A stretch of DNA of 64,000 bases from Squalus acanthias (Eukaryota), in the NCBI GenBank assembly GCA_030390025.1, contig CM059431.1:103170001-103234000 (forward strand), written 5' to 3'. Shown here piece after piece: positions 5,774 through 58,975 of the stretch; the first letter of the stretch is position 1; each line of letters starts with the position of its first letter. The notes beneath the pieces were generated by a model. It did no database searches. It was not told where the DNA came from and saw only the letters and a list, made by a program, of their open reading frames with translations. Position numbers and translations under genes: made by a program.

Positions 5774-6666
5774 GGGGGAAAAATTCAGTATCGCCCCGTT
5801 TGGGGCGCAATTATCGGCCGGGCGCAAAGATTAGCGCCTGACGCTAATTATCGCCTCCGACTGCAAACTTGACTTTTATTGCCCCTGGAGGTGATTGGAG
5901 CGCTAAATCAAGCGCTTCACACCTGTCTTAAAGCGCAAAGGCCGAGGAGCGAGGCGCTACCTCAGAGCGCTGGCGAAGCTCATGTAATGTCAGTCAGCAA
6001 TGGAACACACACACAATGGCACGGGCCAGTTCTTAAAGGGGATGGTTAATCTTGCTTTCCATCCACATCCTGTTCATTGCAGCCTTGAATCTCGGCCTGG
6101 AGAGACTTGCACATCAAATGTGCTGGAAAGAACAATGGAGAGTACCAGGCAAAGAGCTCAGAGTGCAGCCCCCACAGTCTCTTCTAAATCGATACAAGGA
6201 AGGGCAAATCAAAATGAACCTGCAAGGTGCTGCTCAGTACCCAAAACTCCTTCACACAGCGTTGAATCTCTCCAGAAGTCTCTCTCTCTCTCTCTCAGAA
6301 TGCAGGGTTCAAAAATGTCACCAACAATAAGAGGCAGGAAGCAGTCGCCTTTAAATAGCGCTCCCCCAGTCCCTTCCTGACTGCAAAATGCTCCCCTCAA
6401 CCTGTCGTTGCTAGCTGCAGGCGGTAAGGCAGGGGGCGCCACTCAATATCTGCTCCGGGGCGATACCGAGGCGTTGCGCACTCGACTGACGTCACGATCT
6501 GCCGGCGCAGGAGATCGTGGCGGTAGTGTTTAGTGCCGCCGCAAAATGTCTAGTTAATTTCACGAGCGGCGCAAACATTGCTGCGCCCGGGCGCTAGATG
6601 CTTTGCGCCCCATTAGCGCCCTCTTAAGGCGCTAACGGGAGGCGCAACCAACTGAATTTTCCCCTC
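5774..6666. mobile_element. Non-autonomous Harbinger element (MITE) related to the 23547/49664 family
   Basis: TIRs GGGGGAAAAATT / AATTTTCCCCTC with ATA TSD (5771-5773, 6667-6669); ends homologous to both ends of 23547-27761; keeps the start of the Myb/SANT gene (MESTRQRAQ); near-identical copy at 48759-49652. Confidence 0.9.
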
Positions 6667-11180: not shown

Positions 11181-11273
11181 CTGTTCCATTGGGACGGACT
11201 TCACTTGGCCAGTGCTGGGACTAATGTCCTGGCGAATCGAATAACTAGGGCTGTGGAGAGGGCTTTAAACTAA
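11181..11273 (+). pseudogene. C-terminus of CR1 ORF1 SGNH-esterase domain
   Basis: LFHWDGLHLASAGTNVLANRITRAVERALN*; DGLH is the DxxH motif. Confidence 0.75.
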
Positions 11274-11311
11274 TTAGTGGGGGGGAGGTTTCAAGAGAGC
11301 AAAAAATAAAA

Positions 11312-14300: not shown

Positions 14301-14462
14301 AGGAGGAACTACTTCACTCAGAGGGTGGTAGGTCCATGGAATATGCTGCCACAAAAAGCTGTAGAAGCTACATCATTAAATAAATTTAAAACAGAAATAG
14401 ACAGTTTCCTAGAAGTAAAGGGCATTAAGGGTTACGGGGAGCGGGCAGGAATTTGGACATGA
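11312..14462 (+). pseudogene. CR1 ORF2 (APE endonuclease + reverse transcriptase), one apparent frameshift
   Basis: LYLNARS, ITETW, GDFN and SDH endonuclease motifs; KSPGPDG, LDFQKAFD, GVPQGSVLGP and FADD RT motifs; frame continuous if the Ns are removed; 1-nt frameshift in the G run at about 13931-13934. Confidence 0.9.
12850..13049. other. Assembly gap (200 N)
   Basis: Run of N. Confidence 1.
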
Positions 14463-15735: not shown

Positions 15736-16143
15736 GGGGGAAAAATTGTGTGGCCCCCCCTTTTGGGGCGCTAACCCGAAAAAGTTGGCGCCCCTCCGCC
15801 AGAAATTCAGTAGTAGCGTCCCAAGCGGGAGGTGGGGCGCTACTACTGAAGTTCGTGGCGGTGCGTGCAACAGCGCCAAATAAAATGGCCGCCCGACACC
15901 TGCCCTTTAAGTAGCGCCACCGCCAAACCGCCCCCCTGATCCTGTCGCACATATCGCCCGGCGCTAGGTCAGGGGGCGCAAGGGAAGTTTGCGGCTGGGG
16001 CGCTGCGCATGCTGATGATGTCATCGCCAGCGGCGCAGCACCACGGGGCCCTACCGGCTACCGCCGCCGCTAACCTCCCGCTGAATTTCACAGGAGGTGT
16101 TATTGGTGCTGCGCCCGGGCGCTAGTGGATTTGTGCCCCGTTA
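15736..16143. mobile_element. Harbinger MITE, one end lost (related to 35768-36430)
   Basis: Starts TAT-GGGGGAAAAATT; internal blocks shared with 35768-36430; no right TIR. Confidence 0.75.
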
Positions 16144-16315
16144 GAAAGCTGTCTGTTTATTGCTGAATCCACAGTTCTAACTAGTGTATATTTCCTGTAC
16201 ATAAGACCTATGTACGAGAGAACCTGACCAGCAACAGAACATAAAAGGGATGATAAAAACAGAAAACGCTGGAAAGACTCAGCAGGTCAGGCAGCATCTG
16301 TGGAGAGAGAAACAG

Positions 16316-21990: not shown

Positions 21991-23718
21991 TTGGAATGAC
22001 GCATGAGTTTGGTAATTGCTACTAATTTCGTAATGAAAAATTGGTATGGCGGGGGGTGGGGGGGGGGGGGGGGGGGGGGGGTTGGCGTGACCACAGCACA
22101 ATACGGAACTGTTCATATAAAGCAAAAAGATAATAACGCAGCTAAGAGGCGGAACATTTTGTTTGAGCAATGAGCCAACAGACAGCAAAATTCTGACAAC
22201 AGTTCGTTACAACAAAGTCCTCTTTGCAATTTATACTATGTTGTTTACTCGCAGACAATTTCCTCCCATTAAAATTGTAGTTACGGCCCTGGAATTACAC
22301 AGGTGGAACATTCAGGTAGATACGGAAGAGATAAGAAGCTTTCCAATGAAAGGAAAATGACAGGGCTAAAATTAATGTATCAAACACACTCCAGAATAAA
22401 GGGGACAAAAGGAACCTTGAGCTGTTTTTGACGTTAATTATTTGCACAATATTAAAAATGCTATCTCCTGCTCTGAGTCTTTGCTTTTTTTTGAGATATC
22501 CACGCTAGATACCAGTAAGGTCTTGTGCTCCTCCAATCTTTTTTCCCTTTCCTGAAGACTTGGTGAATTGTGTTGCCGCTTAAATTCAACCACACCGACA
22601 GCTCTCTGTTACTTTTGCCATCTGACTACTCCTAATTTGTATACTGTGTGTGTGTGTGTGTATTCAACAATGGGATAAGAACATAAGAACATAAGAAATA
22701 GGAGCAGGATGAGGCCATTTGGCCCCTCGAGCCTGCTCCGCCATTCAATAAGATCATGGCTGATCTGATCTTGGCCTCAACTCCACTTCCCTGCCCGCTC
22801 CCCATAACCCTTGACTCCCCTGTTTTTCAAAAATCTGTCTATCTCCACCTTGAATATATTCAATGACCCAGCCTCCACAGCTCTCTGGGGTAGAGAATTC
22901 CAAAGATTCACGACCCTCTGAGAGAAGAAATTCCTCCTCATCTCTGTTTTAAATGGGCGACCCCATATTCTGAAACGATGCCCCCTAGTTCTAGATTCCC
23001 CCACGAGGGGAAACATCCTCTCTGCATCTACCCTGTCACGCCCCCTCAGAATCTTATATGTTTCAATAAGATCACCTCTCATTCTTCTAAACTCCAATGA
23101 GCCTGCTCAACCTTTCCTCATAAGAAAACCCCTTCAACTCAGGAATCAATCTAGTGAACGTTCTCTCAACTGCCTCCAATGAAAGTATATCCTTCCTTAA
23201 ATAAGGAGACCAAAACTGTACGCAGTACTCCAGGCATGGTCTCACCAACAGTTGTAGCAAGACATCCCCACTTTTATACTCCATCCCCCTTGCAATAAAG
23301 GCCAATATTCCATTTACCTTCCTAATTACTTGATGTACCTGCATGCTAACTTTTTGTGTTTCGTGTACAAGGACACCCAGTTCCCTCTCTACCGCAGCAT
23401 TCTGTAGTCTCTCTCCATTTAAATAATATTTTGCTTTTTTATTGTTCCTACCAAAGTGGATAACCTCACATTTTCCCACATTATACTCCATCTGCCAAAT
23501 TTTTGCCCACTCACTTAACCTATCTATATCCCTTTGCAGACTCTTTGGGGTAAAAATTCAGTTGGTTGCGCCTCCCGTTAGCGCCTTAAGAGGGCGCTAA
23601 TGGGGCGCAAAGCCGCTAGCGCCCGGGCGCAGCGATGTTTGCGCCGCTCGGGAACTTAACTAGACATTGTGCGGCGGCGCTAAACTTTACCGCTGCGACC
23701 ACCTGCGCGCGCAGATTG

Positions 23719-23863
23719 TGACGTCATTCCATGGTGCAACGCCCTTGTGGCGCCCCGGAGCGGAAATTGAGTGGCGCCCCCTGCCTTACCGCCTGGCGCA
23801 TCCAACGACCGGAAGACTGGAACGCTATCAATCGCTGTGGGGCTGGGGGGGGCGCTATTTAAA
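23719..23863 (+). promoter_or_regulatory. Putative transposase promoter: CRE palindrome plus TATA
   Basis: TGACGTCA at 23719-23726, TATTTAAA at 23856-23863; same layout at 56530/56657 and inverted in the MITEs. Confidence 0.55.
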
Positions 23864-24057
23864 GGGGGCCTCTTCCTGTCTTTTTCTGTGGTTGACATTT
23901 TTGCACCACTCGTTCTGAGAGAGAGAGAGAGATTCGGAGAGAGAGAAAGAGAGACTTCTGCATTGAGTCAACGCTTTGTGAGGTAGTTTTGCCTACTGAT
24001 CCTAACTTCGCTGGTACTTTGATTGCTGTCCTTCATAACTTTGCTTGCAAAGAGACT

Positions 24058-25218
24058 ATGGGGGCTGCACTGATTGGGGGCGTCATCCTGCTCCAGCTGA
24101 ATCGGAGGACACAGAGACGCAGAGAGAGAGTGGCAATGATGGCCAGACGGAGGAGGGCCAACAGGCGTATGTACAGGAGAGCTTACCCTCCCACGGTATA
24201 TCGTGAACAGCTCTCCTACATTCATATGTCTGAGGAGCTGTGTTTGCGAAGGCTGCGATTCAGCAAGGAGGTGGTCACTGAGCTCTGCCACCTGCTGCAG
24301 CCAGATCTGCAGCCTCAACTGAGGTCCAGGATGTCTCTGTCGGGGGCAGTGAAGGTCACAGTGGCTCTCAACTTCTATGCTACTGGCTCATTTCAAGCTG
24401 CTGCTGGGGACCTCGCCAATATCTCCCAGTTCGCGGTGCATTGCTGCATCCGTCAGGTCACAAATGCCCTCTTTAAAAGGAGACGAGAGTTCATCTCTTT
24501 CCCCATGACCCTAGACAAGCAGCGTGACCGCGCTCTGGGCTTTGCGAGGATAGCGGGCTTCCCCATGGTGCAGGGCGCCATTGACTGCACGCATGTGGCT
24601 TTGCGTGCTCCACATGAGAATGCCGAGGATTTCCGGAACAGAAAGGGGTTCCATTCCTTGAATGTTCAGTTGGTCTGTGACCACAGACAGCTGATACTCG
24701 CTGTCAATGCCCACTATCCTGGCAGCTGCCACGATGCTTTCATCCTGCGCCAGACTACTGTGGGAGAACTTTTCGAGGTACCGCATCAGCCAGTTGGTTG
24801 GCTTCTCGGGGACAAGGGGTATCCACTGAGCACCTGGCTGATGACACCGCTCCGTACGCCCAACACCCCTGCTGAGCTGCGGTACAACGAGAGCCATCAA
24901 GCTACCAGGAACATCATTGAGCGCACAATCGGCGTGCTGAAGCAACGGTTCCGCTGTCTCGACCATTCTGGAGGAGCCCTGCAGTACTCGCCTGAGCGAG
25001 TATCCAACTTCGTAGTTGTGTGCTGCATGTTGCCTAACATGGCAATCGTCAGGACCCAGCCAATGCCACCAGGCCTTGGAGCACCACCAGAGGAGGAGGA
25101 GGAAGAGGAGGAAGAGGACGAGGAGGATGATCATCAGCAGCACCAAGGCGGGATGGCGGCCCACAATGGTGAAGCTGCAAGGGCCGTCCGTCAACGGCTG
25201 ATAGCAAGCCGCTTCTAG
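24058..25218 (+). CDS. Harbinger DDE transposase (HARBI1-like), 386 aa
   Basis: GAIDCTH, RKGFHSLNVQ, HDAFIL, LLGDKGY, NIIERTIGVLKQRFRCL; acidic tail; CCMLPN where sister copies have CCMLHN. Confidence 0.93.
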   Translation: MGAALIGGVILLQLNRRTQRRRERVAMMARRRRANRRMYRRAYPPTVYREQLSYIHMSEELCLRRLRFSKEVVTELCHLLQPDLQPQLRSRMSLSGAVKVTVALNFYATGSFQAAAGDLANISQFAVHCCIRQVTNALFKRRREFISFPMTLDKQRDRALGFARIAGFPMVQGAIDCTHVALRAPHENAEDFRNRKGFHSLNVQLVCDHRQLILAVNAHYPGSCHDAFILRQTTVGELFEVPHQPVGWLLGDKGYPLSTWLMTPLRTPNTPAELRYNESHQATRNIIERTIGVLKQRFRCLDHSGGALQYSPERVSNFVVVCCMLPNMAIVRTQPMPPGLGAPPEEEEEEEEEDEEDDHQQHQGGMAAHNGEAARAVRQRLIASRF

Positions 25219-25530
25219 GGCCCCTGCTGTGGAAATGGCTTCTGCCATTGCTAACAACATCAATGAACCCAGCACGCAACCCCTAAGCCGGCCAAGGCAC
25301 CAATGATTCCAAACACCAAACATGTATATTTTGAATACAAAAACTTATTTATTTTACAAACTCTGTGTGTGTCATTTCCTCATGACAAACTCATAGAAAT
25401 AAACACAAAAAAACAGTCATTAATATAACTGGTTCTCACAACCTGGAGATAATGTCCAAAACACTAGACAAAAGTTGGACCACGAACCTCGGCCTTTAAT
25501 AAAAAAATGACCAGCATTTTGTCACACCTC

Positions 25531-27404
25531 CTACTTTTTGCCCTTCGAGGGTGATCTCCTTCCCTTGCGCACTTCCCCCCTTCTAACCCTACTGCTCCTC
25601 CGTAATGGGACCTCAGTGGCTGCAGCAAGGCTGGTGGAAGGCTGCTGATTGTCAGACCCTGACACTGCAGATGCCCCTGAAGGACGGCCTCGACCAGTTC
25701 TGGGCCTGGAGGGCCCGGCTGCAGACTGCACCAACTCTGCATGGGCAGCAGCAGTCTGTCCTACAGGCGGTGGCAAGTGCAGTGGAGAAGTGACAGTGTT
25801 GGCAGCAGGAATGCTGTCATCGTGAGAGATGACAGCAACTCCCTGCTCGACCGACACACTGGCACTCCCATGGGGCAGCACTTCAGCATCCGGAGCAATC
25901 TGCTGGAGCACAGATTGCTGGCCTGCTGCGGCGCGGTGAGAGCCCCGGGGACATGTGAACGAACCATCGAGGTTGGCAGCAGTCAGTGCTCGCGTGGCCT
26001 CAATCTGAGTCTGCATGAGAGCAGTCAGAGATGGGATCACGGCAGTCAGTGACTGAATTGCAGCACTAAGCTTTAGTGTGGCATCCGCCTGTGCTACAGC
26101 AAAGTGCTCCACACTCCTTGCCAGTGACTCAATGCATTCGGGCACCCTTCCCACTGCACCCATGAGCTCAGTGTGCATGCCCACCGCCTGGGTGTTCATT
26201 TCTGCGATCAGCCGCTCCTCCTCTGCGTCCATTGCAGTAGGAGTCTCTGGCATACTCTCCCTCTGGGGAGAAGGCCCCCGTTCTTCCCTACCCCCATGGC
26301 GTTGCTGCAGCCCGCTGGGTCCTGGAGCTTCACCCTCATCAGACCCTTCCCCCCTGCTCCCCTCCAGGGAAGGCGTGTTCCCAGTGTGGGCATGGGCTTC
26401 CTCGGGAGAGGGTGGCACTGATGCTCCGGCTTCCTCTTCCTCCTCGGCTGCAGCTTCACTCCCACTGGCAGCTTCAGGGCCCGTCTCCTCAGCTGGTGAA
26501 TCACCATCTGAAAGCAGGGAGGTACAAGAGTGGCTTTAGCGTGAGGACAGGGTGGCAGTAAGGGAGGAATAAGTGCAGCGAGTTAGCAAGTTGGATTGAA
26601 AGTGTCAAAGGCTGGTGTTGTGAGGGACAAGTGGAAGGACAGAGGACAAAAAGGTGATGACCTTACCATTGCTGTCCAGAACGGGGTCGGCGTCTCCAGT
26701 GGCGACGGGACCGATCACCCGGCTTGCCACAATCCTGTGGATGCGCTCCTCAAGATCGCTGAGGGGTTGCAGCTGAGGCTGCCCTCCACCTGTCCGTTGC
26801 TGCTGTCTCCTATTATGCGCCAGCTTGGCCTGCAAGAAAAAGGACAGCATCTGAGTAAATATACAGCCATGGTCTTGCCTGATGTGCCTCCCATAGGTGA
26901 ATAGCCCTTACTGTATACAGCCATGGTCTTGCCTGATGTGCCTCCCATAGGTGAATAGCCCTTACTGTATACAGTCATGGTCTTGCCTGATGTGCCTCCC
27001 ATAGGTGAATAGCCCTTACTGTATGCAAAGTGTGGAATGTGTGTGTGTGTTTCATGAAAGGGCCATAGGTGTTGGATGAGTGTTGTGCATTGCGGTTTTA
27101 AGACCCTCTGGCCATAGAGTGAGGTTGAGATGGAGGGATGGAGAGGTATTGAGAAAAAGCCACTCACCCTGACGACCCGAGTGAGGTCGTTGAACTTTTT
27201 GCGGCATTGAACATGGGTCCTGGGCACCATGCTCCTGGAGGAGACGCTCTGAGCCACCTCCCTCCACACTCTTCTGTACTCGCGTGGCAAAGGCCTCCTG
27301 CCACTCTCAGGGAAGAGTATGGATCTTCTGCGCTCCACCGCGCCAACCAGAGCATCCAAGGCCCGCTCGGTGAAGCGCTGAGCTCGTTCTCTCACCCTCT
27401 CCAT
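25531..27404 (-). CDS. Harbinger Myb/SANT-like DNA-binding protein, 3 exons (27404-27168, 26829-26667, 26507-25531), 458 aa
   Basis: RFTERALDALV..WREVA..RTHVQCRKKFNDL trihelix motif; GT-AG introns join in frame (237+163+977 nt); basic C-terminus. Confidence 0.85.
26860..27022. repeat. 54-bp tandem repeat x3 in intron 1 of the Myb/SANT gene
   Basis: Unit ATACAGCCATGGTCTTGCCTGATGTGCCTCCCATAGGTGAATAGCCCTTACTGT. Confidence 0.95.
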
Positions 27405-28983
27405 CCTTGGCTGCAAAATGGATTCACAGGTCTCTCCAGGCCGAGATTCAAGGCTGCAATGAGCAGGGTGTGGCTGGGGAGCAAGTTGGCCCCCCCCTTT
27501 ATGAACTGGCCGGCGCCAGTGTGTCTGTGTTCCCTCGCTAACTGGCAGCACCTGCGCTGCACTCGCGCGCTGAGTTAGCGCCTCACTGCTTGGCCTTTGC
27601 GCCTTAAGACAGGTGTGCAGCGCCTGATTTAGCGCTCCACTCACTTCCCGGGGCGGTAAAAGTGAAGTTTCCAGTCAGTGGCGATAATTAGCGCCAGGCG
27701 CTAATTTTTGCGTCCAGACGATATTTGCGCCCCAAACGGGGCGCAACCTAATTTTTCCCCCTTTGTGTCCTCCTCACAACTTGCTTTCCCACCTAACTTT
27801 GTATCGTCAGCAAATTTGGCTACAGTACACTCGGTCCCTTCATCCAAGTCATTAATATAGATTGTAACTAGTTGAGTCCCCAGCACTGATCCCTGTGGCA
27901 CCCCACTAGTTACAGTTTGCCAACCGGAAAATGACCCATTTATTCCGACTCTCTGTTTTCTGTCAGTCAGCCAATCCTCTATCCAGTCTAATATATTACC
28001 CCCAACCCCGTGCGCTCTTATCTTGTGCAGTAACCTTTTATGCGGCACCTTATCGAATGCCTTGTGGAAGTCCAAATAAACCACATTTTGCATCACAAGC
28101 AAGCTCGATCATGTCCCTATTGTATACTTGCACATGTAAATTAGCAGCAAGTGTCACGGAATAGTAATCAGGAGCAGGAACTCTGGTTCATTTTATTCCA
28201 CGCCCTCCATCACCATCCTGAAAACCAAGAGATGGGGTGGGGGGCGGGGGGGGGGGGGTGCATTCTGTCTTCCTGATGTATGTGTCTCTATAATAACGCC
28301 ATTGACCCACGGAGCCACTGCAGCAGGCAAATCGTCATACCCCACACAGTTAATTTTACAGGGGATGGTATACTTGGCACAGGATTTGTGCAGCGCTGTT
28401 TATGCAAATTAATAAAAGCACAGTTTGTTATATTTGTGTATCAGTCTGTTTCATTGCGGTTTGTAAATCGACCCACTTTTGCAGGAAGTTGCTGAGTGTA
28501 AACGAAGGCAAGTGTTGGATCAAAACGGTCTACGTTTTGCTCCAACGCATGGAGATAGTTGGGGAACATTTCACACTTAGGTTCACACCTAGCGACTTAA
28601 TTATCTGCCTGGCTGAGCAATGAGAGTGGGGAAGCATTTTGGTAGAACGTACGCTCAGATTAAATTTGGATTACTTCGGAATGAATTAGCGTTTCATGCA
28701 CGCCGGCTGCTACCCTATCCACGAGCATTGCAATTTAAAAAAAACATTCATTCTCGGGATGTGGGTGCCGCTGGCAATGCCAGCATTTATTGCCCCCTCC
28801 CCAATGGCCCTCGAGAAGGTGGTCTTGAACCGCTGCAGTCCGTGAAATGCGTGCATTGTTTATAAAATAAAAGGCATGGTAAATAAAAACCAAGACCGGC
28901 TTAGTGACCAGCACCAATGCCACACCTTGTAGCCATGTGAAGTTAAAGCCAAGTTTGGAAGTTATTCATTGCATCCTTTATTT

Positions 28984-33519: not shown

Positions 33520-34100
33520 TGACCATTGGGTCTCGGGGGTGTTCAGGATCGGAGAGCTGCCATTAGACCAGCCAGCCCGCTGGCCAGGCGGAGCCACAGA
33601 TCCAGGGCCCAGCAGAATGACGATGTCTGAAGCCCACCTGCTTCATGTCTGAGGACTCATTAACTGCATCCACGGGCTTCTTCAGAGCAGATCGCAACTT
33701 TAATGAATTGCAAAGGATTCCACTCCAGTAACGTGCAACCACCAGCAATGCATCACGCAGGTCTGTACCTGCTTTCCTGGCAGCGTCCACGATGCATTTA
33801 TATTGCGGTAATACTCCATCCCCCGCCCCCCCGCCCCCCCCCACTCTTTGCAGCTGCTTGGAGACAAGGGCTATCCCCTGCACAACCTTGGCTGACGAGT
33901 CCTCTCAGGAGCCCGCACTCAGCAGCCGAACTACAATCACATCCACAGGTCAACTCATGAGCTGACAGTTGGAGTCCTGAAGCAACGGCTCCCCTGCCTG
34001 GACGGGTCTGGTGACTTCGTCCATCAGAGACCACAAAGAGTGTCCTGTATGATAGCGATTTGCTGCCAGCTGCGTAACTTTCTCTGCAACACATGGAGCC
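33520..34100 (+). pseudogene. Fossil Harbinger transposase
   Basis: Remnants KGFHSSNVQ, HDAFILR, LLGDKGYPL, GVLKQR..CLD with frameshifts. Confidence 0.75.
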
Positions 34101-35767: not shown

Positions 35768-36430
35768 GGGGGAAAAATTGGCTCGCGCCCCCTTTGGGGC
35801 GCTAACTTCGCCGGGGCGCTACTTTTAGCACCCCGAAAAAGTTAGCCCCCCCGCGCCGGAAATTGCACTGTAGCGCCCCAAGCAGGAGGCGGGTCGCTAC
35901 TGGAGGCGCTCCCCCTCCCTCTTGGGGCGCTCCCATTGAATATCGCGGCGCTACGTGCAGCAGCGCCACACGCGCATCTGCGCGTAGCGCTGCGGTACTG
36001 CAGGCCTCCCTCCCCTGATTAAAGGGGAGGGGCCCTGGGGCCCTGCTGGATCATCGGGGAGCGGCGTGCCGGCATAAGAGTCTGGCACTCCTCTTGATCG
36101 CGGCCGGCACCCCGCAGCGGGAGGCCAGAGGGGGCAGGTGCTGGCAGGCAGCCCCCCCAAAAAATGGCCGCCCGGCACCAGCCATTTAATTTGCGCCGCC
36201 CCGGCTGTGAAAACACACCCCTGACCCTGTCGGACATAGCGTCCGGCGGCAGGTCAGGGGGCGCGAGACAAGTTTGCGGCCGGGGCGCGAGTGGGGTGCT
36301 GGGCACGTTGATGACGTCATCGCCGGAGGCGCAGCATTGCGGGGCGCTACCGGCTACCGCCGCCGCTAAACTCCCGCTGAGTTTTGCGCGGGCGCTAATG
36401 GGAGACGCAAAGCAACCAAATTTTTCCCCT
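35768..36430. mobile_element. Harbinger MITE
   Basis: TIRs GGGGGAAAAATT / AATTTTTCCCCT; GGCGCTAA subterminal motifs; TGACGTCA at 36312; TSD not clean. Confidence 0.8.
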
Positions 36431-47100: not shown

Positions 47101-47741
47101 CGCATGAACGCATCACCACGGAAAGGATGGCAACCTCCATGGAAAGGATGGCTACGGTAGAGGAAAGGATGGCTACGGTAGAGGAGAGGATGGCTACGGC
47201 CATGGAGGAGCTAAGTCGATAAAGTGTTGAAAACATGGTCATTGTTCAGAATAGACTGACATCTCTTGAGGAGCAATGGTCAGCTATTGAGCATAGAAAC
47301 CAGACCTTCATGGAAGTCCTCTGGAGTAGGACTTCCAGTGCAGAAACGGGTCCTCATGGCCCCCCTGAAGTGCAGCAAGGTACTGTCAAGCCACTTGCTA
47401 GCTCTGAAGTGGGGCTGACCCATGAGAGGGATGTTGGTGGCAGACAACAAGGAAGTGGGGGCTCCTCTCCAATCGCTCACACGACCATGCCATTGCAAAG
47501 CCCTCGGTCAGAGCCCCACCAGAGTCCTCAACCAACTGAGATGGGCGTCTCAGCCCCTGCACAGCCGCAGGAGCAGCAGACTGTTGTCGAGCCCTCACAG
47601 GCTCGCAGCCCCAGAGGACGGCCGCCAAAGGTGTCGAGACAGGAGCAGCAAGAAAGTGAGCAAGGGGCCTCCACATCTGCTGAAGCCACAGGGGAAGCAC
47701 CACGTAGGAGCACGCGTAAGAGGAAGATAAAGCACAAGTAG
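44169..47741 (+). pseudogene. Myb/SANT-like gene of element D (exons 44169-44405, 44750-44909, 45061-47741), disrupted by LTR and an in-frame TAA
   Basis: APRFDEASLQALV..WMQVA..RTWLQCRKRFHDL; AHNKRERARTGGGPP; exon 3 rejoins in frame across the LTR; TAA at 47220-47222. Confidence 0.82.
45322..46910 (-). mobile_element. Solo LTR, about 1.6 kb, related to 6974-8074
   Basis: TGAAGGGAT...CCTTCACA, 4-bp TSD GACT (45318-45321, 46911-46914); reverse-complement homology to the 6974 LTR. Confidence 0.88.
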
Positions 47742-48758
47742 TCACAAGGGTAGTCACTTGTGTGTTCTGTTGTATTGTTTTTTGACAAGCCATCCTTGTA
47801 ATGCGATGATAAACAGATTTGATGGCAAACTGTTGAAGTTGTGGCCTGTGTCATCTCGCAAATGCGACTTCCACATTGAGGGCTTAGGGCGACTTGCAAT
47901 TGTCAGTATGGTGGTCAGAGTGAAAGGAATTCGTAGGTTCTTGTCCATTGTCGATGCTCTGATAAGAAGGTGCGAGGCAAAAGTGTTTGATTGTGCAGGC
48001 TAAGCAAATCTGGCCAACATGAGTGCGTCCCTTGCATCGTGGGCAGCAATGTGGTCGCGCGCTGGCGCCTTCTGACCTATGCAATTTCAGGTGGGTGAGC
48101 AGCAGCTTGGCGCTCCTGTTGTTGCTGCTGCTGTTGGTGCTGCTGTTGTTAATGTTTCTGCTGCTGCCGCGGCTGGTCTTCGTCCGAATCTGATGTCCAG
48201 GTGGGAAGGAAATAAATGATTCTCATATATGCCTCAGTTGAGGAAGCGCTCAGTCAAGGTGGGGAGAGGGGTTTCCCAGGAGGTCACACTGGAGATGGGT
48301 GTCAAGCTCCAAACTTCCACAACAATGAGTATGCCTGCTGAAAGTTCCCCTAGACCTGAGACAACAAAGTTCTGCCACCTACAAATGATCATCGGTGAAA
48401 ACTCCTTTGTAATGGTGGAGCTGCAGCTGTTAGTAAGCAATCCACTTGTGAGGCTGCCAGGATTAACTGGCGTGTTCCAGAGGAGACGTGCAGGATGGGG
48501 GAAATGTGTTAAAATCAGAAAGGCCTCTCAAAATGGGATTATAGAGGCAATTAACTGGTTGTTAAGGGCCTTAAGGGCCTATCCCGCCACTTGGAGGCGG
48601 GATGGAAACGGGGTCTGAAACCCTGATTCTGGGAAAATTGCTCAGAGGCGGGATGGAGGCGGGATCGGAGCCGCCCGCCATTTTTTGCGATTTTAATATC
48701 TCATACACCTCCAATCCCGCCTCCTCAGCCCTGGCAAAATCGAGCCCTATGACTCTTT

Positions 48759-49652
48759 GGGGGAGAAATTCAGTATCGCCCCATTTGGGGCGCAATTATC
48801 GGCCGGGCGCAAAGATTATCGCCTGGCGCTAATTATCGCCACCGACTGCAAACTTGACTTTTATCGCCCCTGGAGGTGATTGCAGCACTAAATCAGGCGC
48901 TTCACACCTGTCTTAAGGCGCAAAGGCCGAGGAGCGAGGCACTACCTCAGAGCGCTGGCGAAGCTCATGTAATGTCAGTCAGCAATGGAGCCCACACACA
49001 ATGGCACGGGCCAGTTCTTAAAGGGGATGGTTAATCTTGCTTTCCATCCACATCCTGCTCATTGCAGCCTTGAATCTCGGCCTGGAGAGACCTGCACATC
49101 AAATCTGCTGGAAAGAACAATGGAGAGTACCAGGCAAAGAGCTCAGAGTGCAGCCCCCAAAGTCTCTTCTAAATCGATACAAGGAATGGCAAATCAAAAT
49201 GAACCTGCAAAGTGCTGCTCAGTACCCAAAACTCCTTCACACAACGTTGAAGCTCTCCAGAAGTCTCTCCCTCTCTCTCTCAGAATACGTAGTTCAAAAA
49301 TGGCACCAACAATAAAAGGCAGGAAGCGGTCACCTTTAAATAGCGCTCCCCCTTTCCCTTCATGACTGCAGAACGCTCCCCTCAACCTGTCGTTGCTAGC
49401 GTCAGGCGGTAAGGCAGGGGGCGCCACTCAATATCCGCTCCGAGGCGATACCGGGGCGTTGCGCACTCGACTGACGTCACGATCTGCCGGTGCAGGAGAT
49501 CGTGGCGGTAGTGTTTAGCGCCGCCGCAAAATGTCTAGTTAATTTCACGAGCAGCGCAAACTTCGCCGCGCCTGGGCGGCAGATGCTTTGCGCCCCATTA
49601 GCGCCCTCTTAAGGCGCTAACGGGAGGCGCAAACCAACTGAATTTTTCCCCC
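48759..49652. mobile_element. Harbinger MITE, sister of 5774-6666
   Basis: TIRs GGGGGAGAAATT / AATTTTTCCCCC, TSD TTT (48756-48758, 49653-49655). Confidence 0.92.
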
Positions 49653-50020
49653 TTTGACTCTATGGGGTAGAAATTAGGTCGCGCCCCATTTGGGGCGCAA
49701 ATATCGTCCGCGCGCAAATATTAGCGCCTGGCGCTAATTATCGGCACTGACAGGAAACTTCACTTTTACCGCCCCGGGAGGTGAGTGGAGCGCTAAATTA
49801 GGCGCTGCACACCTCTCTTAAGGCGCAAAGGCCTAGGAGTGAGGCGCTAACTCAGCGCACGAGCGCAGCGCAGCTGCTGCCAGTTAGCGAGGGAGCACAG
49901 ACACACTGGCGCCGGACACTTCTTAAAGCGGGGGGGGCCACTTGCTCCCCAGCCACACCCTGCTCATTGCAGCCTTGAATCTCAGCCTGGAGAGACCTGT
50001 AATCCATTTTGCTGCCAAGA

Positions 50021-52032
50021 ATGGAGAGGGTGAGAGAACGCGCTCATCGCTTCACCGAGCGGGCCTTGGATGCTCTGGTTGACGCAGTGGAGCGCAGACG
50101 ATGCATGCTGTTCCCAGAGAGTGGCAGGAGGCCTTTGCCACGCGAGTTCAGAAGAGTGTGGAGGGAGGTGGCTCAGAGCGTCTCCTCCAGGAGCATGGTG
50201 CCCAGGACCCATGTCCAGTGCCGCAAGAAGTTCAACGACCTCACTCGGGTCGTCAGGGTGAGTGGCTTTTTCTCAATACCTCTCCATCCCTCCATCTCAA
50301 CCTCACTCTATGGCCAGAGGGTCTTAAAACCCCAATGCACAACACTCATCCAACACCTATGGCCCTTTCATCAAACACACACACACATTCCACACTTTGC
50401 ATACAGTAAGGGCTATTCACCTATGGGAGGCACATCAGGCAAGACCATGGCTGCATATTGTAAGGGCTATTCACCTATGGGAGGCACATCAGGCAAGACC
50501 ATGGCTGCATATTGTAAGGGCTATTCACCTATGGGAGGCACATCAGGCAAGACCATGGCTGCATATTGTAAGGGCTATTCACCTATGGGAGGCACATCAG
50601 GCAAGACCATGGCTGTATATTGACTCAGATGCTGTCCTTTTTCTTGCAGGCTAAGCTGGCTCATAATCGGAGACAGCAGCAACGGACGGGTGGAGGGCGG
50701 CTTCAGCTGCAACCCCTCAGCGATCTGGAGGAGCGCGTCCACAGGATTGTGGCAAGCCGGGTGATCGGTCCCGTCGCCACTGGAGACGCCGACCCCGTTG
50801 TGGACAGCAATGGTAAGGTCATCACCTTTTTGTCCTCTGTCCTTCCACTTGTCCCTCACAATACCAGCCTTTGACACTTTCAATCCAACTTGCTAACTCG
50901 CTGCACTTATTCCTCCCTTACTGCCACCCTGTCCTCACGCTAAAGCCACTCTTGTACCTCCCTGCTTTCAGATGGTGATTCACCAGCTGAGGAGATGGTC
51001 CCTGAAGCTGCCACTGGGAGTGATGCTGCAGCTGAGGAGGAAGCCGGAGCATCAGTGCCACCCTCTCCCGAGGAAGCCCATGGCCACACTGGGAACACGC
51101 CTTCCCCGGAGGGGAGCAGGGGGGAAGGGGCTGATGATGGTGAAGTTCCAGGACCCAGCGGGCTGCAGCAACGCCATGGGGGGGGGAGGGAAGAACGGGG
51201 GAGCAGGGGGGAAGGGGCTGATGATGGTGAAGTTCCAGGACCCAGCGGGCTGCAGCAACGCCATGGGGGGGGGAGGGAAGAACGGGAGCCTTCTCCCCAG
51301 AGGGAGAGTATGCCAGACACTCCTAATGCAATGGACGCAGAGGAGGAGCGGATGATTGCAGAAATGAACAGCCAGGCGGTGGTCATGCACACTGAGCTCA
51401 TGGGTGCAGTGGGAAGGGTGCCCGAATGCATTGAGGCACTGGCAAGGAGTGTGGAGCACTTCGCTGTAGCACAGGCGGATGCCACACTAAAGCTTACTGC
51501 TGCAATTCAGTCACTGGCTGCCAGGAACCTATCTGAGCCTGCTCTCATGCAGACTCAGATTGAGGCCACGCGAGCACTGACTGCTGCCATCCTCGATGGT
51601 TCGTGCACATGTCCCCGGGGCTGTCACCGCGCCGCAGCAGGCCAGCAATCTGTTCTCAGGCAAATTGCTCCGGATGCTGAAGTGCTGCCCCGTGGGAGTG
51701 CCAGTGTGTCGGGCGAGCAGGGAGTTGCTGTCCTCTCTCACGATGACAGCATTCCTGCTGCCAACACTGTCACTTCTCCACTGCACTTGCCACCGCCTGT
51801 AGGACAGACTGCTGCCGCCCATGCAGAGTTGGTGCAGTCTGCAGCCGGGCCCTCCAGGCCCAGAAGTGGTCGAGGCCGGCCTTCAGGGGCATCTGCAGTG
51901 TCAGGGTCTGACAAGCAGCAGCCTTCCACCAGCCTTGCTGCAGCCACTGAGGTCCCATTACGGAGGAGCAGTAGGGTTAGAAGGGGGGAAGTGCGCAAGG
52001 GAAGGAGATCACCCTCGAAGGGCAAAAAGTAG
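50021..52032 (+). CDS. Harbinger Myb/SANT-like protein, 3 exons (50021-50257, 50650-50812, 50972-52032), 486 aa
   Basis: GTGAGT/GCAG and GTAAGG/TCAG introns; joined 237+163+1061 nt open frame. Confidence 0.87.
50400..50617. repeat. 54-bp tandem repeat x4 in intron 1
   Basis: Same unit as 26860-27022, one extra copy. Confidence 0.95.
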
Positions 52033-52326
52033 GATGTGTGCCAAAATGCTGGTCATTTTTTTATTAAAGGCCGAGGTTCATGGCCCAACTTTTGTTTAGT
52101 GTTTTGGACATTATCTCCAGGTTGTGAGAACCAGTTATGTTATTGACTGTTTTTTGGTGTTTATTTCTATGAGTTTCTCATGAGGAATTGACACACACAG
52201 AGTTTGTACAATAAATAAGTTTCTGTATTCAAAATATACATGGCTGGTGGTTGGAATTATTGGTGCCTTGGCCGGCTTAGGGGTTGCGTGCTGGGTTGAT
52301 TCGTGTTTGTAGCACTGGCAGGGGTC

Positions 52327-53487
52327 CTAGAAGCGGCTTGCTATTAGTCGTTGACGGACGGCCCTTGCAGTTTGACCATTGTGGGCCGCCCTCCTGCCTT
52401 GGTGCTGCTGCTGATCATCGTCCTCGGCCTGTTCCTCCTCTTCCTCCTCCTCCTCTTGTGGTGCTGCAAGGCCTGGTGGCATTGGCTGCGTCCTGAGGAT
52501 TGCCATGTTGTGCAACATGCAGCACACCACTACGAATTTGGAAACTTGCTCAGGCGAGTACTGCAGGGCTCCTCCGGAATGGTCCAGACAGCGGAATCGT
52601 TGTTTGAGCACGCCGATTGTGCGCTCAATAATGTTCCTCGTTGCTTGTTGGCTTTCCTGGTACCGCAGCTCAGCAGGGGTGTTTGGCGCACGGAGCGGTG
52701 TCATCAGCCAGGTGCTCAATGCGTACCCCTTGTCCCCCAGAAGCCAACCAACTGGCTGATGCGGTGCCTCGAAAATTTCTGCCACAGTACTCTGGCGCAG
52801 GATGAAAGCATCGTGGCAGCTGCCCGGATAGTGGGCATTGACAGCGAGAATCACCTGTCTGTGGTCACAGACCAACTGCACATTCAAGGAATGGAACCCC
52901 TTTCTGTTCCGGAACTCCTCTGCATTCTCTCGCGGAGCACGCAAAGCCACATGCGTGCAGTCAATGGCGCCCTGCACCATGGGGAAGCCCGCTACCCTCG
53001 CAAAGCCCATAGCACGGTCATGCTGCTTGTCTGGGGTCATAGGGAAGGAGATGAAGTCTCGTCTCCTTGTGAAGAGGGCATTGGTGACCTGCCGGATGCA
53101 GCGATGCACCGCAAACTGGGAGATATTGGCGAGGTCCCCAACAGCAGCTTGGAATGAGCCAGTGGCGTAGAAGTTCAAGGCCACTGTGACCTTCACTGCC
53201 ACCGACAGAGACGTCCTGGACCTCAGCTGAGGCTGCAGATCTGGCTGCAGCAGGTGGCAGAGCTCAGTGACCACCTCCTTGCTGAATCGCAGCCTTCGCA
53301 AACACAGCTCCTCGGACATGTGGATGTAGGAGAGCTGTTCACGATATACCCTGGGAGGGTAAGCTCTCCTGTACATGCGCCTGATGGGCCTCCTCCGTCT
53401 GGCCATCATTGCCACTCTCTGTCTGCGTCTCACTCTGCTCCGATTGAGCTGGAGCAGGACGACGCCCCCAATCATTGCAGCCCCCAT
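52327..53487 (-). CDS. Harbinger DDE transposase, 386 aa, intact
   Basis: GAIDCTH, LLGDKGY, NIIERTIG, CCMLHN all present. Confidence 0.94.
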   Translation of the reverse strand: MGAAMIGGVVLLQLNRSRVRRRQRVAMMARRRRPIRRMYRRAYPPRVYREQLSYIHMSEELCLRRLRFSKEVVTELCHLLQPDLQPQLRSRTSLSVAVKVTVALNFYATGSFQAAVGDLANISQFAVHRCIRQVTNALFTRRRDFISFPMTPDKQHDRAMGFARVAGFPMVQGAIDCTHVALRAPRENAEEFRNRKGFHSLNVQLVCDHRQVILAVNAHYPGSCHDAFILRQSTVAEIFEAPHQPVGWLLGDKGYALSTWLMTPLRAPNTPAELRYQESQQATRNIIERTIGVLKQRFRCLDHSGGALQYSPEQVSKFVVVCCMLHNMAILRTQPMPPGLAAPQEEEEEEEEQAEDDDQQQHQGRRAAHNGQTARAVRQRLIASRF

Positions 53488-53974
53488 CTTCTCTTTGCCA
53501 GAAAAGTAATGAGGTACAGCAACGAAAGTAGCAGCAAAGTTAGGATGAACTAGGCAAAACTACCTCACAAAGCTATAACTTGAGGATTTCCACGTTTAAC
53601 TGCGCATGCGCTGACTCCAGAAGTTGCGGTCAGTTTCAGAGGGGTGATGACAGAGAACGCTGGCAGTTTCGCCGTCATTACCGCTGCAAAATCCGAGCCA
53701 ATAGGTGAAAAAGAGCATGTTCAACCAAGGAGCACACTGCTTATAATTTATACTTTCTGTCACTGGTGGTCGTTCGAATATCAAACTTGAAGAAACAAAT
53801 ATTATTTTTGCCCTGTTCTCTGAAAGTAAATGATCTATCTGCCTTGGGGGTGAGGGAATGAGTGGGGGGGGGGGGAGGCGATGGGATGGGGGTTGTGGGC
53901 GAGGTAGGTGGGGTCTCTTTGGCATTAGGTTAGCTCCAAGATGACACAACTGGCAACGGAAGAGTGCAAGTGAG

Positions 53975-56353: not shown

Positions 56354-58975
56354 GGGGGAGAAATTCGGTACCTCAGCGCCTCCCGTTAGCGCCTCCGGGG
56401 ACGCGATAACGGGGGCGCTACCGGCTTTGCGACCGGGCGGGGCGATAGTAACCGGCGCCCGCGAAATTGAGGTGGAGGTTTGCGGCGGCGGTAACCACGA
56501 GCGCCACGCTCTCCTGCGCCCGGAGATCGTGACGTCATCCGGCTGCGCAGCGCCCCGGCTCAGAAATTCACCCTTGCCCCCCCTGCCCGAGCACCTGCCG
56601 TTAGCAACGACAGGTAGAGGAGGCGGATCGCAGTCGGATGCGCGCTGGAGGAGCGCTATATAAAGGCGTCAACGTCCGGTTTATTTTTAGTCGGCAAAGA
56701 ATGCTGCCTTGTCAGTTTGACATAGGCAAACAGGAGGTGTGAGCGATTTCAGCGTTTTTCACTTGAAGGAGTCTTCTGGCTCAGAAAAATTATTCAGTTT
56801 CAGTTAGGTGAGATTTGAAAGTGCAACATTTCCATACTTTAATGGGGGCTGTACTGGCACTGGACCTCGCCCTCCAGCATCAACGTCAGAGGCAGCGGAG
56901 GGAAAGAGAGAGATTGCAAAATGTGGCCAGAGGGAGGAGGGCCAACAGGGCTCTCAACAGGAGGCCTTACCCTCCCAGGGTATTCCGGCAGCATTTCTCC
57001 TACATCAATTTCACTGAGGAACAGTGTGTTAGAAGGCTCCGCTTCACCAAGGAAGTGGTCAGAGAGCTCTGCCACTTCCTGCAGCCAGACCTCGAGCCTC
57101 ACATCAGGAGCACCAGGGCTCTCTCAGTGGCAGCCAAGGTCACCGGCGCCCTCAATTTCTACGCCAGTGTGCAACAGGAGACATAGCTAACATCTCGCAG
57201 TTCACCCTCCATTGCTGCATCCGCGAGGTCACAGATGCTCTTTACAGTAGGAGAAGGGACTACATTTCCTTCCCTAAGACCAGAGAGAAGTAGCGCGAGC
57301 GTGCATGTGGCTTTGCCAGGATAGCGGGCTTCCCCATGGTGCAGGGCGCCATTGACTGCACCCACGTCGCTTTGTGGGCACCGCATAACAATCCTGAGAT
57401 ATTCCGTAACCGCAAAGGCTACCACTCACTTAATGTGCAGTTGGTGTGCGACCACACACAGCGAATCCTCACCGTCAATGCCCGCTATCCTGGCAGCAGC
57501 CACGATGCCTTCATCCTGTGCCAGACCGGTGTGCCAGCTCTGTTCCAGCCACCACGTCAAGCTCACGGTTGGCTGCTGGGAGACAAGGGCTATCCGCTCT
57601 CCACCTGGCTCATGACTCCCCTCTGCAACCCCAGCACTCGTGCCCAGCACTCATACATTGAGAGCCATGCTGCCACCAGGAACATCATTGAGCAGACCAT
57701 CGGAGTGCTCAAGCAACGTCTCCACTGCCTTGACCACTCGGGAGGAGCCCTCCAGTACTCGGCTGAGTGGGTGTCCCTTTTAGTCGTCGTCTGCTGCATG
57801 TTGCACAACCTGGCCATCATGAGGGCGCAGCCATTGCCACCAGGCATAGCCGCACCACCTCAGGAGGTCGAAGACGAGGAGGTCGAGGACGAGGAGGAGG
57901 AGGACGAGGAGGAGGATGAGGAGGAGGAGGATGAGGAGGAGGAGGACAAGGAGGAGGAGGAGGATGAGGAGGAGGAGGAGCACGAACAGCAGCGACGGAG
58001 GAGCCAGCCACTCCATCGGCCTTGTGGAAGGGCGGTCCGTGACCGCCTCATCAGGCTTCAGTTCCAATGAATTCGAGGCCATTTCCCAGTTGCCCAGCCC
58101 GTCCCCATCATTTCATCAATTTCTCATTCCATGCCACGCCCCAAAGCTGAAATGAGACACATCACCATTTCTGCAACATTCCAAAAATAAATTTATCCAA
58201 ATTCAGTAACCATATATATACAGCAACAATATTAACTAATCACCCTTGTGCAAACTCCTACTTGCCCTCTTTACAGTGTCTTTCCCTAATCTACTGCTCC
58301 TATGTAGTGTCTTCCCAGTGGCTGCAGCAGGGCTGGTGGAAGGCTGCTGAGTGTCCGTGCCAGAGACTGCAGATGGCCTTGAAGGACGCCCTCGACCAGC
58401 TCTGGGCCTGGAGCTGGGCTGTAGACTGCACTACCTCAGGCTGGGCGGCGGCAGTCTGGGCTGGCTGGATGACAGGCAGCGACAAGGACAATGGCTGAGT
58501 GGCAGTGGTGGGATCAGGAATGCTGTCACCCTGAGAGAAGACAGCAGGTTCCTGCTCCACTGACCCACTGCCACTCCCCCGGGGCAGCACCTCAGCATCC
58601 CTATCAATCTGCTGGAGCACAGATTGCTGGCCTGTTGCGACCCCATGAGATCCCCGGAGGACTGTGGTAGACCCAGCGACGATGGCAGCAGTCAGAGCTT
58701 GCGTCGCATTAAGCTGAGACTGCATGAGAGCCGTCTGAGACTCGATGGCACCAAGCATAGACTGCATTACAGCACTAAGACGTTGCGTCGCTTCCGCCTG
58801 TGCTGCAATGGAAGCTGCCACATCGCCCATGACACGCGGCATGAGGTCTGGATCCACACGGTCTCTCTGGGAGTCCACCATTCTCTACAGAGTGGAAATG
58901 ATGGGCTCCATGATGTGCGCAGAGCCTTGTGCAATGTTGGAGGCGGACTCCTCCACGCTCCTTCAGTGCAGCTTG
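56354..58975 (+). mobile_element. Harbinger element C, truncated in the Myb/SANT gene
   Basis: TTA-GGGGGAGAAATT TIR; TGACGTCA 56530, TATATAAA 56657; transposase on +, accessory gene 3' part on - (about 58240-58975). Confidence 0.88.
56842..58070 (+). pseudogene. Harbinger transposase pseudogene
   Basis: MGAVLAL..RRLRFTKEVV; deletion/frameshift at about 57167-57186, TAG at about 57291; DDE core 57336-58070; expanded acidic (GAG)n tract. Confidence 0.88.

Follow-up and report, generated by a model that had tools for sequence, protein, structure and literature searches.

A full-length two-gene PIF/Harbinger transposon in an elasmobranch, probably a decayed copy of an abundant chondrichthyan family

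Introduction

Zebrafish Harbinger3_DR, as reconstructed by Sinzelle et al. (2008), transposes in human cells and has a 15-bp target, according to the accessible parts of PMC2836001, PMC3016246, PMC8151067 and PMC9392472. In the available accounts of this element and of rice Ping/Pong it is established that a Myb protein binds both the ends and the transposase, that both proteins are required and that excision is precise. Ping/Pong, together with mPing, are plant elements of demonstrated current activity, with two proteins, a 3-bp A/T target-site duplication (TSD), a 9-bp target preference and non-autonomous derivatives that keep the ends (PMC2836001, in part). Harbinger-Snek of sea kraits is described, in the available portion of the report, as a large marine-vertebrate expansion that came by horizontal transfer and includes two-gene and single-gene elements as well as short non-autonomous ones (PMC8437027), while HARBI1 and NAIF1 are conserved host genes, one derived from a transposase and the other from a Myb gene (excerpts of PMC9392472). 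For cartilaginous fishes, the accessible text of a 2022 survey reports no full-length two-gene Harbingers in elephant shark, other species being left to be checked (PMC9179366), and that of a later genome paper ranks Tourist/Harbinger first among DNA transposons, from repeat annotation only (PMC12498223). A search of papers outside subscription journals and repeat databases listed no description of a full-length shark Harbinger family, and the word Harbinger is absent from the main texts of the Greenland shark and Squalomix preprints, whose supplements may list repeat families.

Here we analyse element A, a 4,215-bp PIF/Harbinger transposon at 23547-27761 of a 64-kb stretch of elasmobranch DNA (the window). 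Going by the available descriptions, it resembles Harbinger3_DR and Harbinger3N_DR in being a vertebrate PIF/Harbinger with a DDE transposase, a separate Myb-like gene and a 3-bp TSD, and shares with Harbinger3_DR an extended palindromic target with a C directly before the TSD. The same descriptions also set the two apart: Harbinger3_DR goes into AAACACCWGGTCTTT, whose core is CWG, whereas A's family has an all-A/T core and a G-A-N-W-C half-site; A's partner protein has 458 aa and its gene two introns; and Harbinger3_DR is active in human cells, whereas A's family is known here from sequence alone. The two proteins, A/T TSD and end-keeping derivatives of Ping/Pong recur here, the MITEs of the window being similar, and the expansion recalls that of Harbinger-Snek, although A's nearest homologues are all chondrichthyan. 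Unlike the HARBI1/NAIF1 pair, which it resembles in composition, A has terminal inverted repeats (TIRs), a TSD, many copies and private changes that look unselected.

Structure of element A

The analysis confirms that element A is a "cut-and-paste" Harbinger transposon of full length, with both genes (Table 1). Its left end reads GGGGTAAAAATT and its right end, in reverse complement, GGGGGAAAAATT, 12 bp with one mismatch, and beyond this core both ends carry the 9-bp block GGTTGCGCC, offset by a 4-nt indel. The TIRs, about 22-26 bp in all, are of the kind found in the superfamily, for which the accessible text of PMC9179366 gives a usual length of 25-50 bp; they were read directly, and are absent from the 25 longest of 34 inverted pairs listed. 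The TTT/TTT flanks form the 3-bp TSD of PIF/Harbinger elements. When A and one TTT are deleted, the open reverse-transcriptase frame of the host repeat, which we take from its RT-like translation to be a CR1-type LINE, is restored, and a joint skipping 4,218 bp (element plus 3) is present in the contigs of all four runs (X1, X3, X10, X15). This joint was considered as a polymorphism of the locus and rejected, since the LINE around A is a high-copy repeat in its own right; its depth of 500-600 in X1 and X3 is as expected of paralogous LINE copies. Among the pieces listed none spans the junctions of A, and no locus-specific empty allele was seen.

Table 1. Positions in the window of element A, its host repeat and related copies
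Feature	Position	Strand	Remarks
Non-autonomous derivative MITE 1	5774..6666	-	77-81% to A ends; TSD ATA
Host CR1-type LINE (presumed), left of A	22690..23543	-	
Left TSD, TTT	23544..23546	.	Read directly; LINE frame restored at empty site
Left TIR	23547..23572	+	12-bp core plus GGTTGCGCC block
Left subterminal region, CpG-rich	23564..23860	.	10 GGCGC(A/T) copies; candidate Myb-partner binding sites
DDE transposase gene	24058..25218	+	386 aa; PF13359, E 6.3e-39
Codon 326	25033..25035	+	CCT (Pro), family majority CAT (His); depth in four runs' contigs
A/T-rich spacer between convergent genes	25219..25530	.	AATAAA on + at 25398, 25498; on - at 25348
Myb partner exon 3	25531..26507	-	Low-complexity linker, helix-like block, basic C-terminal tail; without Pfam match
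Intron 2	26508..26666	-	159 nt, GT-AG, phase 1; splice signals also in copy B
Myb partner exon 2	26667..26829	-	Homologue P0010 gap-free across exon 1/2 junction
Intron 1	26830..27167	-	338 nt, GT-AG, phase 0; contains 54-bp tandem repeat, 3.1 copies
Myb partner exon 1	27168..27404	-	Myb/SANT-like trihelix domain; PF13873, E 1e-10, 41.8 bits (cut-off 21.7)
Right subterminal region	27574..27748	.	7 GGCGC(A/T) copies
Right TIR	27740..27761	-	
Right TSD, TTT	27762..27764	.	
Host CR1-type LINE (presumed), right of A	27765..28084	-	
Non-autonomous derivative MITE 2	48759..49652	-	TSD TTT; 11 bp from end of copy B
Copy B	49664..53573	-	About 92% identical to A; genes open (386, 486 aa); His326; left end missing; mosaic
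Copy C	56354..58884	+	About 75% identical; broken transposase, partial partner gene

The motif GGCGC(A/T), picked after inspection, has 16 matches within the 300 bp at either end of the element, compared with a shuffle mean of 2.5 and maximum of 7 (500 shuffles). The ends look intact, and A could still be mobilised in trans.

The transposase is of the DDE_Tnp_4 type characteristic of PIF/Harbinger and retains D176, D226, D252 and E288, of which D176, D252 and E288 presumably make up the acidic triad, D226 being listed beside them. A structure model of copy B's transposase (pLDDT 86.8) matches two DDE transposases, piggyBac with Z 9.4 over 234 aligned residues (rmsd 5.2) and Tn5 with Z 8.7 over 245 (rmsd 6.0). 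Solved homologues were found neither by sequence at E < 0.1 nor by Foldseek at E 0.001 or better, and a wide fold search returned general DDE/integrase folds only, the role of His326 being shown by no solved structure. The second gene, with the trihelix domain that also marks PIF/Harbinger elements, fits a splice model of three exons and two introns encoding 458 aa. Homologue searches gave one longer protein among 298 candidates for exon 1 and none among 356 for the exon-3 block, and a complex predicted without alignments from residues 1-340 of B's transposase and the helical part of exon 3 in A's partner scored 0.03, which counts neither for nor against binding. No run listed as carrying the family is given as RNA. 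Run X10, guessed to be RNA, speaks neither for nor against expression: its contigs cover both introns and the element ends, and 0 of the 15 joints listed, with 191 more beyond the listing, match an intron.

The initial annotation's structurally complete two-gene Harbinger, with both TIRs and an exact TSD, an uninterrupted 386-aa transposase and a Myb/SANT partner of 458 aa once spliced, is borne out by the directly read ends, the TTT flanks, the LINE frame restored at the empty site, the two Pfam matches and the GT-AG introns.

Target site and proposed mechanism

Ten ends from several related families were compared, 1 of 11 being left out as its flank bases are common with another end. A C stands directly before the TSD (-1) in 9/10 (p 2e-5), an A at -4 in 9/10 (p 5e-5) and a G at -5 in 7/10 (p 0.003), all p values uncorrected, and 29 of the 30 TSD bases are A/T. 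The target is thus a G-A-N-W-C half-site around an all-A/T core (TTT, TAT, TTA, ATA), an extended palindromic preference as in other PIF/Harbinger elements.

By analogy with Harbinger3_DR and Ping/Pong, the convergent genes would each be transcribed separately, and the Myb/SANT protein would bind the repeated subterminal GGCGC(A/T) motifs as well as the transposase, carrying the latter into the nucleus. The DDE transposase would then cut the element out and insert it at a palindrome close to G-A-N-W-C/WWW/G-W-N-T-C, the central three A/T bases being duplicated. What the sequence itself shows is that one such insertion split the LINE at TTT and that A took on its private substitutions afterwards.

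Abundance, relatives and age of the family

Contigs at least 99% alike to the compared stretch, which takes in 1.6 kb of LINE flank, number 20,489 of 64,021 in X1 and 29,675 of 95,620 in X3, all of them short contigs. The family is common to seven organism labels at about 98%, the six others carrying 52-65% of its 31-mers. In organism E the family sequence lies 1.5% from A (36/2,364 bases in the 8 pieces listed), and the flanking LINE is present there too at 95% or more, which fits descent among related species; horizontal transfer as the cause of the sharing is for this reason not favoured, as far as organism E goes.

The nearest homologues are chondrichthyan proteins of Pristiophorus japonicus (P0001, P0002), Narcine (P0004), Mobula (P0005) and Heptranchias (P0006), all bearing the automatic database name 'putative nuclease HARBI1', which does not make them HARBI1 orthologues. 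Their identity is 55-70%, and A and B group with them inside a chondrichthyan clade (95/98 support); as none exceeds 70%, A's own family is absent from the searched protein set.

A diverges by 0.36-1.1% from the family majority, as read from contigs of the public runs X1 and X3, where depths are not copy numbers. At the rate measured in the epaulette shark, a species other than the source, this corresponds to 2.6-16 million generations. CpG-rich elements mutate faster. A's insertion could also be younger than its divergence suggests, if a minor lineage, mobilised in trans, already carried these changes. Near-identical family sequence is abundant in X1 and X3 and in other organism labels, in support of the first reading; its "recently active" family is favoured by the low per-cent divergence, but the unselected-looking private changes, the wide sharing and the span of generations weaken it.

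Continued mobility through other, intact master copies, with new insertions occurring and segregating and A as a damaged or passenger member, is a reading we consider rather unlikely. It would account for the large share of X1 and X3 contigs at least 99% alike, for the open frames of both near-complete copies (A, B), for the B-type majority residues at all eight changed transposase codons (see below) and for a lineage that evolved under purifying selection. Against these stand the changes at conserved columns in A and B alike (B has Q277 and Q280 where N and H are conserved), the 51 of 893 sites at which the two MITEs differ, the failure to see a locus-specific empty allele and the small distance of organism E from A in the pieces listed, which fits a burst predating several speciations.

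Private changes of element A

Of the 28 listed sites scored, 14 have a letter other than that of element A in 89% or more of the depth, in X1 and X3 alike, and copy B sides with the majority at 13 of these 14 A-private sites. A carries about 14 private substitutions, among which 10 alter an amino acid and 1 is synonymous; as 46 further difference rows lie beyond the listing, synonymous private changes may be hidden. In the transposase, the eight codons changed among the sites listed (I10, T46, M92, G96, L152, G236, V241, P326 in A) are all non-synonymous, whereas the remaining A/B differences comprise 40 non-synonymous and 42 synonymous (Fisher p 0.006), with an A/B dN/dS of 0.34 overall, falling to 0.22 for the core. 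The private changes look unselected, in the pattern that neutral decay would leave.

Three of them hit columns that are otherwise conserved, with T46 in place of R, G96 in place of V and P326 in place of H. The CCMLPN of A against the CCMLHN of B and C was correctly read at the outset, though P326 does not stand as the only suspicious change, given the eight codons that depart from the majority. The His letter takes 4820.2 of 4840.2 depth in X1, 99273.9 of 99283.6 in X3 and the entire depth in X10 and X15. Its column, third most conserved, has His in 187/201 aligned homologues (93%) and Pro in 1, the acidic columns being less conserved (D176 204/244, D252 203/238, E288 185/240), and His is kept in 39/40 other rows among homologues without acidic residues. 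In the model of B's protein it lies within helix 312-331 (pLDDT 98), so that His326Pro most likely inactivates A's transposase; as a literature search listed no experiment on this histidine, the inactivity of A is something we only infer. Proteins free of disabling changes, as expected of an active element, are not what A appears to encode (His326Pro, Arg46Thr, Val96Gly).

That A is itself autonomous and working, Pro326 and the other changes being tolerated, is very improbable. The acidic triad, both open frames, the splice signals, the ends and the TSD are all intact and argue for this and against a dead copy; a proline inside a core helix where 93% of homologues have His, the further changes T46 and G96 at columns that are also conserved, and the neutral pattern argue the other way. 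Both frames are still open because A is only 0.4-1.1% diverged: a neutral copy at 0.36-1.1% would keep both with probability 0.39-0.06 (assumed indel ratio 1:10).

Early domestication by the host, in the manner of HARBI1/NAIF1, with selection for a host function keeping the frames open, would agree with the tail-to-tail open transposase and Myb genes and with elasmobranch relatives that look domesticated (short-branched clades without acidic residues). A does not show the single copy, lost ends and purifying selection on the locus of a domesticated pair: it sits inside a LINE with both ends and TSD, belongs to a many-copy family and has private changes rich in non-synonymous ones, not purged, and a copy so little diverged is expected to have its frames open. 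We hold domestication to be extremely improbable.

Next to no weight is given to the idea that some private letters, Pro326 included, arose in assembly and that the true copy lies nearer the majority. The window does contain an N gap, and A's letter has zero depth at 24764 and 25424 (X3) and at 24194 and 24779 (X1). The run contigs lose rare variants, however, so that a missing A letter there carries no weight, the changes are scattered single substitutions without frameshift, and residual depth remains at 25034 in X1 (20) and X3 (about 10).

We therefore read A as a full-length member of an abundant chondrichthyan PIF/Harbinger family that has probably decayed neutrally since insertion and is quite probably dead.

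Implications

As a two-component, target-selective tool, which had been proposed for this locus, the family is favoured by the extended target motif common to the ends compared, but the kind is not new, a two-protein, target-selective Harbinger3_DR vector being described in the available literature. In the suggested assay, both choices of protein, A's and B's, may be damaged, B having Q277 and Q280, a mosaic look and no left end. That the family has working master copies in living sharks, which would make it a naturally active vertebrate Harbinger in no need of reconstruction, and that the majority His326 proteins, acting on ends like those of A, would carry cargo in vertebrate cells to the ~13-bp G-A-N-W-C/WWW/G-W-N-T-C palindrome, unlike the target of Harbinger3_DR, seems decidedly unlikely.

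Element A documents full-length two-gene Harbingers in an elasmobranch, which, as things stand, matters little. It is also a warning that in slow-clock sharks open frames and about 99% identity do not mean recent. The family is young enough for its ancestral proteins to be read almost directly, so that a second Harbinger system for vertebrates, differing in its target motif, could readily be built from it. Should live master copies exist, mechanistic and structural studies would have in this family a natural Harbinger of vertebrates to work with.

Structure and insertion site of element A

Element A, the Harbinger copy under study, is a genuine and structurally complete Harbinger, in which all PIF/Harbinger features open to testing are present (see table). 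Its termini share a 12-bp core with 1 mismatch and a 9-bp block beyond a 4-nt indel, and a fold search with the predicted model of the copy B protein gives the transposase an RNase H-like DDE fold. The splice signals of its partner, the Myb/SANT gene, are identical in copy B. The homologue P0010 aligns without gaps to partner residues 2-113, spanning the first exon junction; the second junction is predicted from splice signals. A breaks the reverse-transcriptase-like frame of a LINE that we take to be of CR1 type; the frame is rejoined once A and one TTT are taken out in silico, and this rejoined arrangement, shorter by 4,218 bp, is present in all four public runs compared with A as contigs (X1, X3, X10 and X15, the last labelled organism E). 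Inward-facing words that we presume to be TATA-like, and possibly internal promoters, each followed by a G run, lie ~200 and ~95 bp 5' of the transposase and partner start codons, respectively; copy C has TATATAAAGG at the place equivalent to A's word.

Features of element A and of related sequences in the window
Feature	Position	Strand	Description
Element A	23547-27761		4,215 bp; TTT flanks each side
A transposase gene	24058-25218	+	386 aa; PF13359, E 6.3e-39
Codon 326	25033-25035	+	Pro in A, His in family majority
A partner gene		-	three exons, two GT-AG introns, predicted 458 aa; PF13873 in exon 1
TATA-like words, then G run	23855-23866	+	facing inward
TATA-like words, then G run	27496-27507	-	facing inward
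54-bp tandem repeat, A intron 1	26860-27024		3.1 copies, 98-99% matches
54-bp tandem repeat, B intron 1	50398-50622		4.2 copies, 98-99% matches
Copy B	49664-53573	-	near-complete copy
MITE 1	5774-6666		~893 bp
MITE 2	48759-49652		~893 bp
MITE 2/copy B junction	48751-49663		ends 11 bp apart
Harbinger remnant	15736-16150		lone end
Harbinger remnant	33673-34081		transposase fragment
Harbinger remnant	35768-36429		short element, both ends
Harbinger remnant	44193-44393		Myb fragment
Harbinger remnant	46659-47741		partner-like C-terminus, by eye only
Harbinger remnant	56354-58884	+	copy C
Long CR1-type LINE	11249-14462		endonuclease-like and RT-like frames; N assembly gap near 12850-13050

The family across runs and organisms

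A belongs to a many-copy family. Of the 24 runs listed, 18 contain 52-85% of the sampled 31-mers; they come from 9 studies and carry 7 organism labels, with one sample bearing no label. One of the richest runs may be the window's own source. Contigs matching at >=95% number 64,021 in X1 and 95,620 in X3, counts that cover a stretch including 1.6 kb of repeated LINE flank and give no copy number; individual sites within A are covered by 6-41 distinct contigs each. Among the 8 pieces listed for each run, 17 of 1,548 bases differ from A in X10 (1.1%) and 36 of 2,364 in X15 (1.5%). Organism E sequence covers the LINE flank of A as well, so that relatedness of the species fits this sharing better than horizontal transfer does.

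The best 79 of 120 listed transposase homologues all come from sharks and rays, the closest among those listed at 70%, and a 41-row tree, for which 38 rows were chosen from these 120, nests A and B in a chondrichthyan clade; the host is accordingly taken to be an elasmobranch. Harbinger transposase-like proteins also form five clades with short branches and good support, each drawn from different shark or ray genera (P0006 of Heptranchias, P0013, P0016, P0017, P0018, P0022 and P0089; P0025, P0026 and P0068; P0004 of Narcine and P0005 of Mobula; P0011 and P0012; P0038 and P0042). Their members have mostly altered acidic residues and retain the CCxLHN motif; they look like elasmobranch-specific domesticated transposases, and HARBI1 itself could be one of the five.

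Private changes of A and the conserved His326

The comparison of runs with A showed 40 differences, with 46 more hidden; 38 of those shown lie inside A, and 28 of these sites were scored, the other 10 being excluded because they did not approach fixation in X1 and X3 alike. Of the scored sites, 14 show a letter other than A's at >=89% of depth in each of the two runs, and B carries the family-majority letter at 13 of them. Eight fall in the transposase and all are non-synonymous (I10, T46, M92, G96, L152, G236, V241 and P326); three fall in the partner, two non-synonymous and one synonymous. Purifying selection is evident between A and B, with dN/dS at 0.34 overall, 0.22 in the core and 0.18 over the first 110 codons of the partner. 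The non-synonymous to synonymous ratio is 8:0 for A-private changes versus 40:42 for the remaining transposase A/B differences (Fisher p 0.006), a contrast that the hidden rows could soften. Together, the low dN/dS and the 8:0 split suggest a lineage selected while moving, with A's own changes unselected.

The initial annotation gave CCMLPN for A and CCMLHN for copies B and C, and the sequences bear this out. At 326 the His letter accounts for all depth in X10 and X15, and for >99.5% in each of X1 and X3. Of 250 homologues examined, 201 align here, 187 with His and 1 with Pro, and the column ranks third in conservation, above the catalytic acidic residues. In the predicted model of the B protein (mean pLDDT 86.8) His326 lies within helix 312-331 (pLDDT 98). 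It is retained in 39 of the 40 other tree-set rows, including proteins in which the catalytic acidic residues are lost, which suggests a structural role; our literature search found no direct test of this His. Pro326 most likely disables the A transposase. It had been taken as the sole suspicious change, a view that does not hold, since T46 and G96 also occupy conserved columns (Arg in 74/88 and Val in 133/216 homologues) and apparently increase the damaging load. A is probably dead as an autonomous unit.

Open frames and age

Both near-complete copies in the window, A and B, have both frames open. A's divergence lies between 0.36%, from the 14 sites plus one at 0.69/1.0 (15 near-fixed positions over 4,215 bp), and an upper figure of 1.1%. 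On the assumption of one indel for every ten substitutions, the chance that a neutral copy retains both frames and its splice sites is 0.39-0.06 over this range; a large family is expected to include many neutral copies with open frames. With the epaulette shark rate of 7e-10 per generation (upper limit 14.1e-10; PMC10587355), this divergence equals 2.6-16 million generations; the figure gives only the order of magnitude, because the rate was measured in a different species and CpG sites mutate faster. This age agrees with the family sharing across organisms. Other copies of the family may still be active at present.

Copy B, MITEs and remnants

Copy B lacks the first 426 bp of A, and its transposase has Gln277 and Gln280 where homologues have Asn (104/115) and His (97/117); its partner carries an in-frame duplication of 87 bp. 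Relative to A, 1 of 159 sites differs in intron 2 versus 90 of 1,161 in the transposase (p 1.6e-4), and divergence over 49664-53573 runs from 0.6% and 3.0% in the introns to 7.8% in the transposase and 15% in the 5' leader. B is apparently a mosaic, and is no clean stand-in for A. Past 53573 it continues as an unrelated GC-rich, element-like stretch to near 53699, with no matching TSD there.

The two MITEs, non-autonomous derivatives with 51 differences between them, join the left end, to about the transposase start, to the right end from about the partner start. In X1, X3 and X10, this MITE sequence is found on loose ends at positions 27426-27427. The five bases between the TSDs of MITE 2 and B are the target half-site of both, and the junction is a putative small insertion hot spot. 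At least six further Harbinger remnants lie within the 64-kb window.

Proposed mechanism and significance

The Harbinger ends analysed here are flanked by 3-bp A/T target-site duplications. In a half-site count that pools several families, one non-independent end removed, C adjoins the TSD at 9/10 ends, with A at -4 in 9/10 and G at -5 in 7/10. The motif GGCGC(A/T), picked after inspecting the sequence, occurs 16 times in the terminal 300-bp stretches of A versus 2.5 expected; these repeats are candidate partner binding sites. In known elements, according to PMC9392472 and PMC2836001, the ends are bound by the Myb protein, which also binds the transposase N-terminus and imports the transposase into the nucleus; both proteins are needed and excision is precise. 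By analogy, the partner of the A family would do likewise. A and the MITEs would be mobile solely in trans.

The reconstructed zebrafish Harbinger3_DR works in human cells with the target AAACACCWGGTCTTT (PMC8151067, PMC2836001 and PMC3016246). For cartilaginous fishes, PMC9179366 reports a failure to find Harbingers in elephant shark and urges a check of others, and PMC12498223 names them as common DNA transposons in grey reef shark; our literature search found no account of a full-length shark Harbinger family. That live master copies exist, and that the family would yield a vertebrate Harbinger vector of natural origin with a target distinct to it, is a long shot.
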